From Patescibacteria group bacterium (lineage in GTDB: Bacteria; Patescibacteriota; Minisyncoccia; UBA6257; 02-FULL-45-10c): a DNA stretch of 64,000 nt. The position numbers and the translations under genes were made by a program. The notes below the pieces were generated by a model. It made no database searches and had not been told where the DNA came from. It worked only from the letters and a program-made list of their open reading frames with translations. Shown here one piece after another: positions 11,825-52,814 of the stretch. The stretch spans positions 12,605 through 76,604 of the forward strand of contig JAHILT010000006.1 in the NCBI GenBank assembly GCA_018896875.1, read 5' to 3'. The number at the start of each line of letters is the position of its first letter. Position 1 is the stretch's first letter.

Positions 11825-13327
11825 TTAATCCTTACTTATTAAAGGACCTATTATTGTGTCCTCTATAATATATCCTAAGCTTTTTATTTTGTTTCTCAAT
11901 AGATCGGATTTAGTAAATTGTTTATTTCCTCTGCATAACTCTCTTTCTTGGGCTAATATGGTTATATTTTTAGGTATTTTGTGTGTTTTTAAGGTGGTTC
12001 CTAAAAATATAGATAATTTTTTAATTATAAATTTTTTAATTATAGTAGCTTCGTTTTTGGATAGCGTCCATATTTTAGGTTCTATCGTATTTATTAATTC
12101 AAAAATTGAAGCTATTGCTTTCGGAGTATTAAAGTCATCACTCATAGCAATATCAAAATTGTTTTCTGCTTTTTTAAGAAGATATTCAATTTCAGAGCTG
12201 ACAATTCCTTTTTCCTTTATAAAAGATAGAGAGGTTATTATTTTTTGTAATTTTTTAAGTGTATTAATACCTTGTTCTGCGGATTTTTCGGTATAATTAA
12301 AAGACGAACGATAATGATTGAGATTTATGAGTAGTCTTAGAATTTCTGGAGAATATTTTTTCGTAAAATCTTTTATTGTTGTAAAGTTTTTTAAAGATTT
12401 AGACATTTTTTTTCCATCAATCAAAAGAAATCCTGTATGCATCCATATTTTTACCATTGGTTTTTTACCAGAAGCTGATTCTTGTTGGGTAATTTCTGCT
12501 TCGTGGTGTGGAAATTTTAAATCTACGCCACCACCATGAATATCATATTGTGAACCAAAATAATGTTCGCTAATAGCTGTGTCTTCAATGTGCCATCCTG
12601 GACGACCCCAGCCGAGAGAAGTATACCAAACTGGTTCGTAGTTAATGATTTTCATTGAATTTTTCTTTCTGTGTAAGTCTGCGTTTATATCCCCGCCGAA
12701 GGCGCCGCCAGTAGCGAGCCTCGCCAAGGGCGGGAGGCTCGCCCTTTCGGGCGGCGCGCTAATCTGCGTTTTGGAGAATTTCCATAAAGCAAAATCTCCT
12801 TTGTTTTTTTTGTTTATATCATTATCAATTCTTGATGTTGCATCTTCGGCTTGAGAAGCGGTTCGTTTTGAGAGTTTTCCGTATTCTGGGAAAGTAGAAA
12901 TATCAAAATAATATCCGTCATTTATTTTATAGGCGCATCCTTTTTTAATTAATGTTTGGATTTGTTTTATGATTTGAGGAATGTGTTTACTAGCTTTAGC
13001 GTGTTTAACTGATTTTATATTCAATATTTTTTCAATTTTGTAATACTCTTTTTCAAATTTATTTGCTAATTCAAGAGGACTAATATGTTTTTCTTTAGCT
13101 CTTTCAATTATTTTATCATCAACATCTGTAATATTTTGAAGATAAAAAACATTTATTTTTTTAGATCTCAAATAACGCACAATAGTATCAAAGGCAATAT
13201 AAGTTCTGCCATGTCCAAGATGGGGATTGTCATATACTGTTGGACCGCAAACAAACAAACGTAACGGGCGAGTATTTGGTAGGTTTTCTTTTTTTCCGCT
13301 TAGGCTACTATATATTTTTATAGCCAT
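11825..13327 (-). CDS. cysS: Cysteine--tRNA ligase, carrying a GC-rich in-frame insertion
   Basis: HLGH (HIGH), GRPGWHIE and KMSKS motifs. Confidence 0.9.
   Translation of the reverse strand: MAIKIYSSLSGKKENLPNTRPLRLFVCGPTVYDNPHLGHGRTYIAFDTIVRYLRSKKINVFYLQNITDVDDKIIERAKEKHISPLELANKFEKEYYKIEKILNIKSVKHAKASKHIPQIIKQIQTLIKKGCAYKINDGYYFDISTFPEYGKLSKRTASQAEDATSRIDNDINKKNKGDFALWKFSKTQISAPPERASLPPLARLATGGAFGGDINADLHRKKNSMKIINYEPVWYTSLGWGRPGWHIEDTAISEHYFGSQYDIHGGGVDLKFPHHEAEITQQESASGKKPMVKIWMHTGFLLIDGKKMSKSLKNFTTIKDFTKKYSPEILRLLINLNHYRSSFNYTEKSAEQGINTLKKLQKIITSLSFIKEKGIVSSEIEYLLKKAENNFDIAMSDDFNTPKAIASIFELINTIEPKIWTLSKNEATIIKKFIIKKLSIFLGTTLKTHKIPKNITILAQERELCRGNKQFTKSDLLRNKIKSLGYIIEDTIIGPLISKD
12674..12773. 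repeat. GC-rich palindromic module inside cysS, bounded by TCTGCGTTT direct repeats
   Basis: GC-rich block at 12691-12760 with hairpins CGCC-GAA-GGCG, GCGAGCCTC...GAGGCTCGC and GCCC-TTTC-GGGC. TCTGCGTTT occurs at 12678-12686 and 12763-12771. Confidence 0.8.
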
Positions 13328-19773: not shown

Positions 19774-19834
19774 ATATTTGTTTAATTTAATTTTAATTGT
19801 TTATTACGACTTATTTTTTGTATTTATTAGTATT

Positions 19835-19859
19835 ATTCGTATCATTCGAATGCATTCGT
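19835..19859. repeat. Phased ATTCG[T/A]A direct repeats in the grpE-dnaK spacer
   Basis: ATTCGT at 19835, ATTCGA at 19844 and ATTCGT at 19854 (spacings 9 and 10). The same unit, as ACGAAT, is arrayed at 47691-47730. Confidence 0.7.
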
Positions 19860-19877
19860 ATATTGGTATCACATTAG

Positions 19878-37065: not shown

Positions 37066-39519
37066 ATGGGGATGAAAAGAGAAAAAAAATTTGTTTTATG
37101 GTTTGAAGAATTAGGAATTAATGATATTCCTTTGGTTGGCGGAAAAAATGCGGCGATCGGAGAGATGTATTCAAATTTAGTCCCGCTTGGAATTGGTATT
37201 CCAAATGGGTTTGCTTTGACAGCTTATGCTTATAGATTTTTTTTCGAAAAGACTGGACTAGACGATAAGATTAAAGAAGTTTTATCAGATCTTAATACGC
37301 ACGATATTAGAAATTTACGAGCAAGAGGAGCGAGTTGCAGAAAAGCTATTTTGTCTACTGAATTACCTATTGAGATTAAAAAAATATTAGCTCTTACTTA
37401 TAAACAACTAGAAAAAAAATATGGGAAGCGAGTAGATGTGGCTGTTCGTTCTTCTGCTACTGCAGAAGATTTGCCCGATGCTTCTTTCGCTGGACAACAA
37501 GAAACCTTTTTAAATATTTCAGGAGAGGAGGCACTAGAGGAAGCCGTTCATAAGTGTATAGCTTCTTTATTTACAGACAGAGCTATTTCGTATAGAACAG
37601 ATAAAGGTTTTTGTCATTTTGACACAGCGCTTTCTGTTGGTGTTCAAAAAATGGTGCGTTCTGATTTAGCTAGTAGCGGAGTTATTTTTACTCTAGATAC
37701 AGAATCAGGATTTGATAAAGTTGTGGTTATTAATAGTGTCTATGGTTTAGGGGAAATGATTGTTCAAGGACGAGTTATACCAGATGAATTTATAGTTTTT
37801 AAACCTACGCTTGAGAAAGGATTTAAATCTATTATTGCTCAAGATCTAGGAGTTAAGGACAAGAAAATGGTTTACGCTTCTAAAGAAACAAAAGTTGTTG
37901 ATGTCAGCAAAAAAGATCAAGAAGCTTTTTCTTTAACCAATCAAGAAGTTTTAAAATTAGCGGATTGGTCTGTGAAAGTTGAAAAACATTTTTCTGCAAA
38001 AAAAGGAAAATATCAAGCTATGGATATTGAATGGGCGAAGGATGGAAAAACTCAAAAATTATTTATAGTGCAAGCTAGACCAGAAACAGTGCATTCTTCT
38101 AAAGACCCGAATGTTTATCAAGAATTTAAATTAAAAAAGACAGGCAAATTACTGTTTTCTGGAATAGCTGTTGGTAAAAAAATAGCATCAGGAAAAGTGC
38201 GGGTAATCAAAGATACTAAAAATATGTTGCAGTTTAAAAAAGGAGAAATTTTAGTTACTGAAATAACTGATCCTGATTGGGAGCCAATTATGAAAATTGC
38301 TTCAGCTATTATTACTGACAAAGGTGGACGTACTAGTCATGCTGCAATTGTTTCACGTGAATTGGGAATTCCTTGCATTGTTGGATCTGAAAAAGCGACA
38401 AGGCTTTTGAAGGATGGAGTGGAAATTACAGTTGATTGTGCTTCTAGCGAAGAGGGAAGAATTTATAAAGGAAAATTACCTTTTATCATTAATAAGCAAA
38501 GATTAAACAAAATTCCAAAAATAAAGACCAAGGTAATGCTTAATATTGGTTCTCCTGGCGAAGCTTTTAAAAATAGTCATTTGCCTGTAAGCGGAGTTGG
38601 TTTAGGCAGATTGGAGTTTATTATAGCTTCTCATATCGGCATACATCCTAATGCTTTGATTAATTATCAAAAAATTAAAAAACAAAAAAATACTGAAGCA
38701 AGAAAGATTATTAAAGAAATAGACAAAAGAACACCTAGCTATAAAATCAAATCAGATTTTTATATTGATGAATTAGCGGAAGGTATTGCTAAAATTGCTG
38801 CTGCTTTTTGGCCTAATGATGTAATCATTAGATTTTCTGATTTTAAAACTAATGAATATAGTAAACTCGTGGGCGGAAGCTTATATGAACCACAGGAAGA
38901 AAATCCTATGATTGGCTGGAGAGGTGCGTCTCGTTATTATGATCCAAAATTTAAAGAAGCTTTTGGTTTGGAATGTAAGGCCTTTAAAAAAGTCCGTGAA
39001 GTTATGGGGTTGGTTAATATAGTACCTATGGTTCCTTTCTGTAGAACGCCAGAAGAGGGGCAGAAAGTTCTTGGTGTTATGAAAGAGTACGGGCTTTCTC
39101 GTAGTCCGCGTCAGTCAGCGTCTAGTCTGCGTAAGTCTGCGCTTGAGGGACTCAAAGTATATGTGATGTGCGAGATACCATCTAATATTCTTTTAGCTGA
39201 TGAATTTTTGGAAATTTTTGATGGAATGTCTATAGGTTCAAATGATTTAACTCAATTAGTTTTAGGAATGGACAGAGACTCTGGTGTCATTACACATATT
39301 GCTAATGAGAATAACGAAGCGGTGAAAAAAATGGTTGCGGATATTATTACTAAATGTACAGCGAAGAAAAAGTATATTGGTATTTGTGGACAGGCTCCTT
39401 CCGACTATCCTGAATTTACTGCGTTTTTAGTAGAAAAAGGAATAGAAAGTATATCTTTAACTCCTGATACAATTATCAAAAACATTTTAATGATTGCGGA
39501 AAAAGAAAAAGGAAAATAA
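37066..39519 (+). CDS. ppsA: Phosphoenolpyruvate synthase (pyruvate, water dikinase)
   Basis: VAVRSSATAEDLP, phospho-His loop GGRTSHAAIVSRELGIPC, and a C-terminal PEP-utilising TIM domain (GSNDLTQ). Confidence 0.9.
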   Translation: MGMKREKKFVLWFEELGINDIPLVGGKNAAIGEMYSNLVPLGIGIPNGFALTAYAYRFFFEKTGLDDKIKEVLSDLNTHDIRNLRARGASCRKAILSTELPIEIKKILALTYKQLEKKYGKRVDVAVRSSATAEDLPDASFAGQQETFLNISGEEALEEAVHKCIASLFTDRAISYRTDKGFCHFDTALSVGVQKMVRSDLASSGVIFTLDTESGFDKVVVINSVYGLGEMIVQGRVIPDEFIVFKPTLEKGFKSIIAQDLGVKDKKMVYASKETKVVDVSKKDQEAFSLTNQEVLKLADWSVKVEKHFSAKKGKYQAMDIEWAKDGKTQKLFIVQARPETVHSSKDPNVYQEFKLKKTGKLLFSGIAVGKKIASGKVRVIKDTKNMLQFKKGEILVTEITDPDWEPIMKIASAIITDKGGRTSHAAIVSRELGIPCIVGSEKATRLLKDGVEITVDCASSEEGRIYKGKLPFIINKQRLNKIPKIKTKVMLNIGSPGEAFKNSHLPVSGVGLGRLEFIIASHIGIHPNALINYQKIKKQKNTEARKIIKEIDKRTPSYKIKSDFYIDELAEGIAKIAAAFWPNDVIIRFSDFKTNEYSKLVGGSLYEPQEENPMIGWRGASRYYDPKFKEAFGLECKAFKKVREVMGLVNIVPMVPFCRTPEEGQKVLGVMKEYGLSRSPRQSASSLRKSALEGLKVYVMCEIPSNILLADEFLEIFDGMSIGSNDLTQLVLGMDRDSGVITHIANENNEAVKKMVADIITKCTAKKKYIGICGQAPSDYPEFTAFLVEKGIESISLTPDTIIKNILMIAEKEKGK
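39101..39142. repeat. Four tandem 10-nt units AGTC[C/A/T]GCG.. inside ppsA
   Basis: AGTCCGCG at 39103, AGTCAGCG at 39113, AGTCTGCG at 39123 and AGTCTGCG at 39133. Exact 10-nt period. Translated as SPRQSASSLRKSA. Confidence 0.9.
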
Positions 39520-50921: not shown

Positions 50922-52814
50922 TTAATTATTAGGTTTGTTTTCTGAATCTAATTTTTCAATTAATTCTTTCGTAGACATTTCTCCTATCGTTCCTATCCCT
51001 CTTTGTCTAATATTTACTGTTTTATTCTTTTCTTCTTTTTCTCCTACAATTAAGATGTACGGATATTTTTTCATTTCAGCTTCACGAATTTTTTTACCGA
51101 TAGTATTATTAGACAAATCAATCTCTACTCTATACTCTTTTTCAAATAATTGTTTTTGGATTGATTGAGCGTAGTCATTAATATTCTCAGAGATTGGTAA
51201 AATCATTATTTGCGTAGGCGAAAGCCAAAGAGGAAATTTCCCTTCATAATGTTCTATTAATAAACCAATAAATCTTTCAAAGCTTCCAAAGAGAGCCCTA
51301 TGTAATACATAAGGTCTTTCGTTCTCTCCTTTATTATTAATAAAGGTCATATCAAAACGTTTAGGTAAATTGAAATCAAATTGTAGGGTAGAGCATTGCC
51401 ACTCTCGCCCTAATACATCTTTAATTTTAAAGTCTAATTTTGGTCCATAAAAAGCCGCTTCTCCAATTTCTTCTTTAAACTCAAGTTTTTTTTCTTTGGC
51501 TACTTTTCTCAAAATTTTCTCGGTAAATATCCACCCTTTATCATTCCCAGCATATTTAACCTTGTCCTTAGGGTCACGTAAGGAAAGATAAACATTAATA
51601 GAATTAATATCAAAGCCAAAGGACTTAAACATAAATAAAATAAAATCAATAACTTTTTTAAGTTCATCTTCTAATTGGTCTTGTCTACAAATAATATGGG
51701 CATCGTCTTGAGTAAAACCTCGTACTCTAGTTAATCCAGAAAGTTCTCCCTTTTTTTCAAATCTATAAACAGTTCCACATTCAGCCCATCTAAAAGGAAA
51801 TTCTCTGTATGACTTTGGTGTATTTTTATATATTTGAATATGAAACGGACAATTCATTGGTTTGAGCAAGTATTCTTCTGAAGTTTCAGCTTTCTTTTTG
51901 TTCTTTTTTTCTTCCAATGTTTGTCCCGCTTCTAGTGGAGGATACATACTACTACTATAAAATCCCCAGTGACCAGAAGTTTCCCAAAGATTACGATGTC
52001 CAATATGAGGACTCCTCACAAGGTCGTAGCCGTTTTTAAGATGTTCTTTGTACCAAAAAGCTTCAATTATTCTCCAAAGAATTGCGCCCTTAGGATGCCA
52101 AAGTGGCAAGCCAAGTCCTACTTTTTCATCAATATGGAATAAATCTAATTCTTTTCCTAGTTTTCTATGGTCTCTCTTTTTTGCTTCTTCTAAGAGGTGG
52201 AGATAATCTTTTAATTCCTTCTTGCTATCAAAAGCTATTCCATAAATTCTAGTGAGCATAGGATTTTTTTCACTTCCTTTCCAATAAGCTCCAGCTATGT
52301 GAGTAAGCTTAAAAGAATCAAATCCGATTTCTTTGGTATTTTTTACATGAGGGCCCTTACAGAGATCAGTAAAAATGTCTCCGGTATCATAAATATGAAT
52401 AGGAGCTTTTTCTTTTTGTAATTCTTTAATAAGTTCTAATTTAAATTTTTGATTACTAAATATTTTTTTAGCTTTTAACGGAGTGATTTTTTCGCTTTTA
52501 AAATCTATTCTTTTATTAATAAAAGAACGCATTTCTTTTTCCAGCATCGGCAAATCTAATTCGCCGATCGCTGACCCCGCTGACTTTGGCTGACCCCGCT
52601 GACTTATTTTTTGTCCGCGAAGTCCGCTTTTGTCCGCGGAGTCTGCACTAAAGAGGAAGTCATAATAAAAACCGTTTTCTATAGTTGGTCCTATACCTAA
52701 TTTTGTTTTAGGATATTTTTTGAGAACAGCCGCAGCCAAAAGATGGGCTAGCGAATGTCTAGCCTTATCTATACTAGCTTGTTTTAATTCTTCTGAATTG
52801 GTTTGTTTGCTCAT
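50922..52814 (-). CDS. thrS: Threonine--tRNA ligase, carrying a ~30-aa repeat-derived insertion
   Basis: RHSLAHLLA editing-domain motif, class II core (FRWAECGTVYRFE, GFTQDDAH, HRALFGSFERF), anticodon-binding C-terminus. Confidence 0.92.
   Translation of the reverse strand: MSKQTNSEELKQASIDKARHSLAHLLAAAVLKKYPKTKLGIGPTIENGFYYDFLFSADSADKSGLRGQKISQRGQPKSAGSAIGELDLPMLEKEMRSFINKRIDFKSEKITPLKAKKIFSNQKFKLELIKELQKEKAPIHIYDTGDIFTDLCKGPHVKNTKEIGFDSFKLTHIAGAYWKGSEKNPMLTRIYGIAFDSKKELKDYLHLLEEAKKRDHRKLGKELDLFHIDEKVGLGLPLWHPKGAILWRIIEAFWYKEHLKNGYDLVRSPHIGHRNLWETSGHWGFYSSSMYPPLEAGQTLEEKKNKKKAETSEEYLLKPMNCPFHIQIYKNTPKSYREFPFRWAECGTVYRFEKKGELSGLTRVRGFTQDDAHIICRQDQLEDELKKVIDFILFMFKSFGFDINSINVYLSLRDPKDKVKYAGNDKGWIFTEKILRKVAKEKKLEFKEEIGEAAFYGPKLDFKIKDVLGREWQCSTLQFDFNLPKRFDMTFINNKGENERPYVLHRALFGSFERFIGLLIEHYEGKFPLWLSPTQIMILPISENINDYAQSIQKQLFEKEYRVEIDLSNNTIGKKIREAEMKKYPYILIVGEKEEKNKTVNIRQRGIGTIGEMSTKELIEKLDSENKPNN
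52566..52648. repeat. GC-rich composite repeat inside thrS
   Basis: GCTGACCCCGCTGACTT x2 (52570-52586 and 52589-52605), then GTCCGCG, AGTCCGC, GTCCGCG and AGTCTGC units at 52613-52646. Confidence 0.9.

Follow-up and report, generated by a model that had tools for sequence, protein, structure and literature searches.

The 64-kb window analysed here (64,000 nucleotides of contig JAHILT010000006.1 from a Patescibacteria group bacterium) contains ppsA, the gene for phosphoenolpyruvate (PEP) synthase. Within its open reading frame (ORF) lies an array of four short units, each with a TCNGCG core. We consider it probable, from sequence comparison, that this array represents one terminal-repeat arm, without the nuclease, of a family of mobile in-frame cassettes of Patescibacteria. 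The complete element of this family would consist of two inverted arms, each made of four units of about 10.5 nt with a TCNGCG core and a 10 / 11-12 / 10 spacing. Between the arms would lie a gene for a PD-(D/E)XK nuclease (Pfam PDDEXK_3, NCBIfam GxxExxY) without its own start or stop, and the whole element would be read through as an additional domain of the host protein. The comparisons show a four-unit module of fixed architecture, a dispersed family of such modules, and the identity of the module with the arms of an in-frame PD-(D/E)XK cassette. Copies of the family are found in approximately 12 genes of the present genome.

The array and its insertion site in PpsA

PpsA contains the Pfam domains PPDK_N, PEP-utilizers, and PEP-utilizers_C. 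Judged by their database names, the proteins most similar to it belong to Patescibacteria (Paceibacterota / Parcubacteria group). An initial annotation, made from the sequence alone, had placed four tandem AGTCNGCG units between the MKEYGL and LKVYVMCEIPS blocks of this protein, and the four units are indeed there (Table 1). They are translated as (R)SPRQSASSLRKSA(L). The exact 10-nt period of the same annotation, with units starting at 39123 and 39133, has to be corrected. The AGTC starts are at 39103, 39113, 39124, and 39134, which gives a spacing of 10/11/10. Tandem Repeats Finder (TRF) called a period of 10 at 39103-39141 and also a period of 21 with 1.9 copies at 39102-39141. Since 21 nt correspond to seven codons, a multiple of three, the insert peptide is built of two 7-aa quasi-repeats, SPRQSAS and SLRKSAL; the earlier description of the peptide as non-repetitive does not hold. 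The flanking bases and the N position vary among the units, which are not homogenised. AGTCNGCG occurs seven times in the window against 1.16 expected, and all of 100 shuffles gave fewer. The ppsA array accounts for four of these copies within its 41 nt. The other three belong to thrS and to the margin of the cysS hairpin, where the annotation had already seen the unit.

An RNA-level element at this position was also considered and rejected. The predicted fold of 39080-39170 is not more stable than that of shuffled sequences (z = -0.83). A scan against Rfam 15 gave two sub-threshold snoRNA chance matches, neither of which overlaps the array, and no family match.

The segment S678-G695 stands in place of the 7-residue DRAKDKD linker of relatives, a net gain of 11 aa. 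Linkers of the GLDRAKDKDLKIY or GLDRAKDKDLKIYVMCEIPS type are present in 19 of 19 matching relatives from the same genus, family, or order, and the present protein reads GLSRSPRQSASSLRKSALEGLKVYVMCEIPS at this point. PDB 2OLS aligns with PpsA over its full length with a 12-residue gap at the insert. The linker is also short in 100 of the 120 closest database homologues, in line with the short linker that the annotation expected in this place. Unrelated inserts of 8-37 extra residues are found in 20 of the 120, precisely between GLxR and LK(V/I)Y. In a tree of 109 full-length PpsA sequences, calculated with the linker masked, the insert state needs 5 changes, at least 3 of which are forced by well-supported branches. 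The present ppsA belongs to a clade of 22 sequences with 99% support, and 20 of these 22 are uninserted. The nearly invariant Asp of GLDR is never retained in insertion-bearing PpsA alleles. As D678S accompanies such alleles generally, the insert junction may lie before codon 678.

The DNA of four inserted homologues was inspected. Two of them (L051 and L052) have paired inverted arms in the PpsA loop. In L053, a Jorgensenbacteria protein, and in L054 the insert is a solo forward arm of four units, which shares both orientation and frame with the ppsA array (R-xxxxSAx-xxxxSA-L/F-K-V-Y). The units of these two are of the AATCAGC type, and their identity to the ppsA array is 56-61%, compared with 72-83% for arrays within the present genome. 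The PpsA loop is a recurrent landing site, either through homing-like targeting or simply as one of the few tolerant places.

The structure of PpsA was modelled with AlphaFold2 on 65 sequences, with a mean predicted local distance difference test (pLDDT) score of 83. Residues 681-693 have a pLDDT below 50 and are modelled as a coil that connects helix 662-674 to strand 699-702 in the PEP-utilizers_C barrel. The ppsA copy is read as about 16 hydrophilic residues in a surface loop of the TIM-barrel domain that is predicted to be disordered, far from the conserved residues of PpsA.

A dispersed module of fixed architecture

The genome (790 kb, 31.6% GC, 89 contigs; G000 in the coordinates) was searched for arrays, defined as two or more TCNGCG cores at a spacing of 9-12 nt, with dinucleotide-preserving shuffles as the null. 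Eighteen arrays were found genome-wide against 0.5 in the shuffles. The distances between cores on the same strand peak at 10, 21-22, and 31-32 nt, with a mean period of about 10.5. A slightly relaxed core gives 20 arrays, and 13 of the 20 have exactly four units at 10 / 11-12 / 10 with a span of 40-42 nt. The module is a discrete element of fixed architecture and not a free tandem array. The variable unit number implied by the initial annotation was not observed; four units at this spacing are almost always seen, here and elsewhere in Patescibacteria. The motif is outside the top over-represented GC-rich 6-8-mers of the genome. The signal of the arrays resides in their clustering and phasing rather than in a k-mer excess.

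The arrays are present in both orientations, and nearly all of them are inside long ORFs. The hosts include LepA (three sites), RecG (two sites), IF-2, GatA, LigA, GAPDH, ThrS, and PpsA, together with the leader peptides of two type IV pilins and a surface protein of 1688 aa. Arrays of 41 nt, with an 11-nt second unit, read xRxSASSxRxSA, or TQTNADxTQTN on the other strand. Those of 42 nt, with a 12-nt second unit, use neighbouring frames. That the module occurs in unrelated genes, in either orientation and in different frames, and is absent from orthologues, agrees with the nucleotide-level origin that had been proposed at the outset. Paired arms without cargo are found in thrS, in GatA, and at the second LepA site. 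The pair in thrS adds about 27 residues and has an ATCGGC...GCCGAT inverted repeat at its outer junction.

Replication slippage of a 10-nt unit in situ would make the ppsA array an ordinary microsatellite or contingency repeat, and the other arrays would have arisen independently. The units in ppsA are tandem and alike, as slippage would produce them. However, the same core recurs in a four-unit 10 / 11-12 / 10 module, in both orientations, at no fewer than 12 loci here and more than 70 elsewhere, which is unlike independent slippage. The ppsA orthologues contain no seed unit, the N position and the flanking bases vary from unit to unit of one array, and the array flanks a nuclease as inverted arms (described below). 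A slippage microsatellite or phase-variable repeat was rejected on the fixed four-unit architecture, the dispersed modules, and the heterogeneous units, and we regard such an origin as highly improbable.

An artefact of assembly or binning, such as a chimeric join or a foreign read in the ppsA contig, is even harder to credit. The assembly is fragmented, with an estimated contamination of 5%, and the database has the exact PpsA protein only once. However, the reading frame of the 817-aa ORF is kept through the insert on a contig of 93 kb. Independent assemblies have equivalent in-frame inserts in this loop, and a dozen further genes of the present genome carry them too.

A nuclease cassette with the same arms in LepA

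A complete in-frame cassette is located in LepA, outside the window (Table 1). The gene (G000:C17:5268-7610, minus strand) encodes, between the G1 and DTPGH motifs, RRPTQTETQTNAD, a domain of 115 residues, and RFQRESASSPRESA. The domain matches PF13366 (PDDEXK_3) with E = 7.8e-29 over profile positions 1-116 of 117, and TIGR04256 (GxxExxY) with E = 4e-32. The GxxExxY, PD, and ExK motifs are intact. A sequence search with this nuclease found no PDB relative at E <= 1. The left arm has four CGCAGAC units and the right arm four GTCNGCG units; the arms are thus inverted. The right arm, TTTTCAGCGTGAGTCAGCGTCTAGTCCGCGTGAGTCAGCGC (G000:C17:6944-6984), is identical to the ppsA array at 34 of 41 positions (83%). 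The two share the 10/11/10 spacing, the GCGC end, and the reading frame (RFQRESASSPRESA in LepA vs RSPRQSASSLRKSA in PpsA). In congeners the LepA site is empty of the cassette and reads PVRMKYKYNGVEYTLNLIDTPGH.

In ppsA there is no partner arm and no nuclease. The ppsA copy is therefore a solo-arm derivative and not a complete member of the cassette family.

Cassettes with other unit sequences occupy the same LepA position in G113, G162, G147, G145, and G102 of the order. In a congener (locus L067, G003:C4:1600-2400), a different insert of 34 residues is found at this site. Short units of the CAACAAC / AACGATAAA type flank the '...VILAEAGIQKDAGFRVKSGMT...' hairpin repeat within this insert, a repeat that is widespread. 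The LepA site therefore accepts several element families.

A second GxxExxY gene, free-standing and encoding 134 aa, is located directly downstream of LepA (G000:C17:4861-5184). This gene has AT-rich ATACAAAT / ATTTGTAT repeats in inverted orientation. It was considered as a partner of the ppsA array and set aside as not an obvious one, because its only repeats are of this AT-rich type and it has no TCNGCG arms.

Distribution in the order and in Patescibacteria

An order-level sample of 151 genomes was examined, and 30 copies of PF13366 were studied as loci. PF13366 is present in 52 of the 151 genomes. About 25 copies lie within open frames that measure 460-1033 aa and belong to LepA, RecG, and further hosts. 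At the 30 loci, in-frame and free-standing copies alike have inverted arrays of 3-4 short units on both sides, and the six-mers common to both flanks average 10.1 in the inverted sense vs 3.8 in the direct sense. The unit sequence varies with the lineage of the nuclease (CGCGGAA, CGCAGAT, ACGAATA, GCGATTA, and others). This matching suggests that the nuclease protein and its site may have co-evolved.

The 151 genomes were also screened for arrays with a three-unit pattern, for which reversed-pattern controls gave approximately 0. The occurrence of arrays is very patchy. PF13366 is present in 14 of 15 array-rich genomes vs 38 of the 136 others (Fisher p = 1e-6); the array-rich genome without a PF13366 match is G100. 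Zero arrays are found in five congeners, and most members of the family also have zero. The arrays therefore entered or expanded in the present lineage recently, after its split from the congeners, and this fits the lineage-specific insert in ppsA. Arrays and insertions recur at the same sites of PpsA, LepA, and RecG across families.

With each species represented by one genome, a scan for the exact four-unit module gave 118 loci or more. The figures on foreign copies here and below were all obtained among the matches listed. The taxa represented include Jorgensen-, Harrison-, Lipton-, Wolfe-, Yanofsky-, Vogel-, Staskawicz-, and Campbellbacteria, Nomurabacteria, and Saccharibacteria. A few 33-nt matches in high-GC actinobacteria look like chance. 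For 73 module copies in low-GC loci, the four-unit 10 / 11-12 / 10 architecture is almost always kept. A PDDEXK_3 domain lies 30-47 nt from the array in six of the 73, in frames of 778-1248 aa. An inverted partner is present within 260 nt in 31, and the remainder are solo. Frames of at least 200 aa hold 49 of the copies, 27 in sense and 22 in antisense. The sense reading is almost always xRxSASSxRxSA, as in ppsA; the copy in L075, for example, reads LRQSASSLRKSA vs PRQSASSLRKSA in ppsA.

Palindromes at the insertion junctions

The outer end of the ppsA array is followed by a small palindrome (Table 1). Its outer CTCAA belongs to the Leu-Lys codons of the host, which are conserved, and TTGAG and GGA encode the extra (L)EG. 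The LepA cassette has palindromes of 10-11 bp at both ends, GTTCGCATGA-ttta-TCATGCGAAC on the left and CAAGTTGAGGA-gtatg-TCCTCAACTTG on the right. In each of them, host coding sequence forms the outer half and is repeated in inverted form as the inner half; congener LepA genes without the cassette have no palindrome. The palindrome was therefore made at insertion.

At the outer ends of the 18 arrays of this genome, a palindrome of at least 5 bp is present in seven, vs 10% of random positions, and one of at least 7 bp in five, vs 2.4%. The foreign copies behave similarly: 30 of 73 (41%) have a palindrome of 5 bp or longer vs 7.5% of controls, and 30% have one of 7 bp or longer vs 2.1%. No direct duplication of the flanking bases was seen at ppsA. 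To our knowledge, no transposon class leaves an inverted target duplication in place of a direct one, and none was found for any transposon class in the literature searched on such inverted duplications.

Weighing the explanations

Several points weigh against assigning the ppsA array to the cassette family. No reverse-oriented units and no PF13366 match were found in or near ppsA. A full cassette in PpsA was found neither among the 120 best homologues nor in the 151 genomes, and the link between the ppsA array and the cassette is drawn from similarity of sequence and architecture and from co-occurrence. The left boundary of the insert may lie anywhere within 39094-39102. The ppsA palindrome is in the right place, but with its 5-bp stem it is the weakest example, and about 10% of random positions match as well.

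Some of these points would also be expected if the arrays were the primary element, that is, a self-sufficient repeat that is MITE-like (miniature inverted-repeat transposable element) or moved by another enzyme, with the nuclease as a passenger that lodged between paired arms. The array in ppsA would then have arisen independently of the nuclease. The missing PpsA cassette is one of them. In addition, the nuclease is not nearby for most arrays, namely for 67 of the 73 foreign copies and for all but one locus here, and G100 is rich in arrays without a PF13366 match. However, inverted arrays accompany free-standing and in-frame PF13366 genes alike, and their unit sequence tracks the nuclease lineage. 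The co-occurrence of arrays and nuclease per genome and the fixed array-to-nuclease distance of 30-47 nt likewise speak against a passenger. We judge this explanation unlikely.

A function for the host could also keep the array in place, either as a phased cluster of DNA-binding sites (for a regulator, for uptake, or for replication/segregation) or as an RxSA/RKSAS peptide motif. The mean period of about 10.5 nt puts the four cores on one face of the helix, and the PpsA site has been used repeatedly, with at least 3-5 gains on the tree. These features are what a selected element could show. However, the copies lie at arbitrary places in unrelated genes and in both orientations, and they encode two unrelated peptides, xRxSA and TQTNAD. 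Five congeners manage without any copy. About 60 units in 790 kb are far under the density of uptake signals. The insert loop is predicted to be disordered and remote from conserved residues, and neither the RNA fold nor Rfam points to a structured RNA. A host function is a quite improbable reason for the array. A nuclease-less arm of the in-frame cassette family remains our preferred explanation.

Proposed mechanism

In the mechanism that we propose for this family, the four helically phased units of an arm would be putative binding sites of the nuclease, occupied by two dimers or a tetramer. The nuclease would mobilise the arms in cis or in trans. Solo arms may derive from inverted pairs by loss of one arm, since long inverted repeats are unstable, or they may result from a single insertion. 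The palindrome of host flank at the outer end could be a scar of the insertion chemistry, for example of fold-back priming at a break made by the nuclease. The copy in ppsA would have no host function and would be neutral baggage that persists because the loop tolerates the insert.

A more far-reaching version is possible, although we hold it only tentatively and with some doubt. The four-unit arrays may serve as recognition ends for a class of mobile elements of Patescibacteria that has not been described before. The sole gene of such an element would be a promoterless GxxExxY nuclease without start or stop, produced solely within the invaded essential protein as one of its internal domains. 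The element would home to the same tolerant loops (LepA, RecG, PpsA, and ThrS) across distant lineages. Its insertion by break and fold-back would leave a small hairpin of inverted host flank at each junction and no direct target duplication. Solo arms such as that in ppsA would then be stabilised footprints, bound in trans by a resident nuclease.

Comparison with known systems

Rickettsia palindromic elements (RPEs) are selfish in-frame repeats (Ogata et al. 2000, as summarised in PMC10969869 and PMC1779305). Like RPEs, the modules are short selfish repeats dispersed in a small AT-rich genome. They also lie in frame in housekeeping genes and are translated as tolerated surface segments, as is the insert in ppsA. 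RPEs are palindromic hairpins of 100-150 nt, are confined to Rickettsia, and have no known autonomous partner. In contrast, the module measures 41-42 nt, consists of four direct units of about 10.5 nt, and is not self-complementary, as the RNA fold indicates. A complete form with a PD-(D/E)XK nuclease exists for the module, unlike for RPEs.

Multiple subterminal repeats that bind the transposase are found at the ends of transposons such as Tn7, Mu, and the plant CACTA/hAT-type elements. As with MITEs and solo terminal repeats, the non-autonomous copies of the present family greatly outnumber the autonomous ones, and the arms are inverted arrays of short sites. The cargo-less paired arms in thrS, in GatA, and at the second LepA site are a further likeness to MITEs. 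Unlike a classical MITE, the ppsA copy is single-armed, and no direct target-site duplication was seen; in the family, an inverted copy of host flank makes up a small junction palindrome instead. The copies of the cassette family, unlike MITEs, are kept in frame inside genes. The cargo also differs from that of transposons, as it is a PD-(D/E)XK nuclease without its own start or stop and not a DDE or a serine/tyrosine transposase.

I-Ssp6803I is an example of a PD-(D/E)XK homing endonuclease. Like inteins and homing-endonuclease genes, the cassette places a nuclease gene in frame at conserved sites of essential genes. Occupation of the same site in distant lineages (LepA, RecG, and the PpsA loop) in a patchy manner resembles homing genes and suggests horizontal spread. 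Unlike in inteins, no protein-splicing domain was seen and no intron is evident, although no search aimed at splicing motifs was made. The insert appears to stay in the mature protein, and inteins have nothing comparable to its flanking repeat arrays.

GC clusters of yeast mitochondrial DNA include in-frame copies in var1. They are likewise short GC-rich mobile modules in a very AT-rich genome and are sometimes tolerated in frame in a coding gene. They differ in that they form a palindromic class in another host, with neither a nuclease cassette nor four-unit helical phasing. DNA uptake sequences (DUS) and uptake signal sequences (USS) occur as hundreds to thousands of dispersed single copies per genome. 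In contrast, the TCNGCG units are gathered in approximately 18 clusters, and the congeners have none.

In the literature, PF13366/GxxExxY is listed with its function unknown (PMC3424549). A search on GxxExxY/PDDEXK_3 and on in-frame insertions in Patescibacteria gave only such function-unknown listings, a passing mention, and reviews of RPEs and MITEs. No published description of an in-frame GxxExxY / PDDEXK_3 cassette family was found in the literature searched.

Other arrays and repeats

The arrays in two type IV pilin genes (G000:C17:11102-11143 and G000:C78:2791-2822) are located in the leader peptide (MKISNKFRVSPRFIPRKSASNG|FTLVE...), which they extend to about 21 residues before the point of prepilin cleavage. 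The extra residues are predicted to be removed on maturation.

In cysS, single TCTGCGT units in direct orientation flank a GC-rich hairpin (Table 1). The same hairpin is also present in one of the pilin genes (G000:C78:2791-2860), where it follows three units (2791-2822) and interrupts the fourth. This arrangement suggests nested elements, in which the 72-nt hairpin may insert into array units.

The intergenic region of grpE-dnaK contains an array of about five ATTCGTAT-type units of 9-10 nt (window positions 19812-19871). It resembles the AT-rich arms of free-standing GxxExxY genes in other genomes of the order (for example at loci L035, L036, and L043) and may be the solo arm of a second subfamily.

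A dispersed repeat, TTTGTCATTGCGAGGAGTCTGCGACG...GCAATGACA, is found at G000:C2:2730-2830 and G000:C83:2390-2450. It contains the word AGTCYGCG and is read in frame as ...VIASKAKQSRFDEIATSQTPRNDK... in an ORF of 462 aa. It looks like a separate hairpin family.

Table 1. Location of the ppsA array, its host gene, and related features (positions in the window, except for the G000 coordinates).
Feature	Position	Strand	Description
Four-unit array in ppsA	39102..39142	+	TAGTCCGCGT CAGTCAGCGTC TAGTCTGCGT AAGTCTGCGC; TCNGCG core, forward units, solo 'right arm'
PEP synthase (PpsA) coding sequence, host of the insert	37066..39519	+	817-aa ORF; match to PDB 2OLS, E = 7.8e-254
Whole lineage-specific segment S678-G695	39097..39150	+	SRSPRQSASSLRKSALEG; from codon-level ortholog alignment; left boundary uncertain within 39094-39102
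Junction palindrome at outer end of the ppsA array	39143..39155	+	TTGAG-gga-CTCAA; 5-bp stem
Complete in-frame PDDEXK_3/GxxExxY cassette in LepA	G000:C17:6944-7401	-	inverted four-unit arms; outside the window
Inverted arm pair in thrS, cargo-less, in frame	52566..52648	-	four CGCTGAC-type then four GTCCGCG-type units; reads ...SADSADKSGLRGQKISQRGQPKSAGSA...
Single units in cysS	12675..12773	+	AAGTCTGCGT (12675-12684) and TAATCTGCGT (~12760-12769); bracket a 72-nt GC-rich hairpin

Significance

In-frame selfish DNA is a known kind of element. Here it would come with a nuclease-bearing master copy, and the ppsA array would be an ordinary decayed member of its family. An apparently odd microsatellite in one enzyme is the mark of a widespread family of selfish DNA that resides in essential genes of ultra-small bacteria, within their frames. 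If the interpretation as a nuclease cassette is true, the family would represent a third way to live inside a gene, beside the protein splicing of inteins and the RNA splicing of introns, namely plain read-through in a tolerant loop. It would also leave an unusual junction signature, in which the target is duplicated in inverted rather than direct orientation. The modules inflate and diversify the proteins of Patescibacteria, and they produce false 'lineage-specific insertions' in alignments and phylogenies. At the same time, they are natural maps of the insertion-tolerant loops in PpsA, LepA, RecG, and ThrS.

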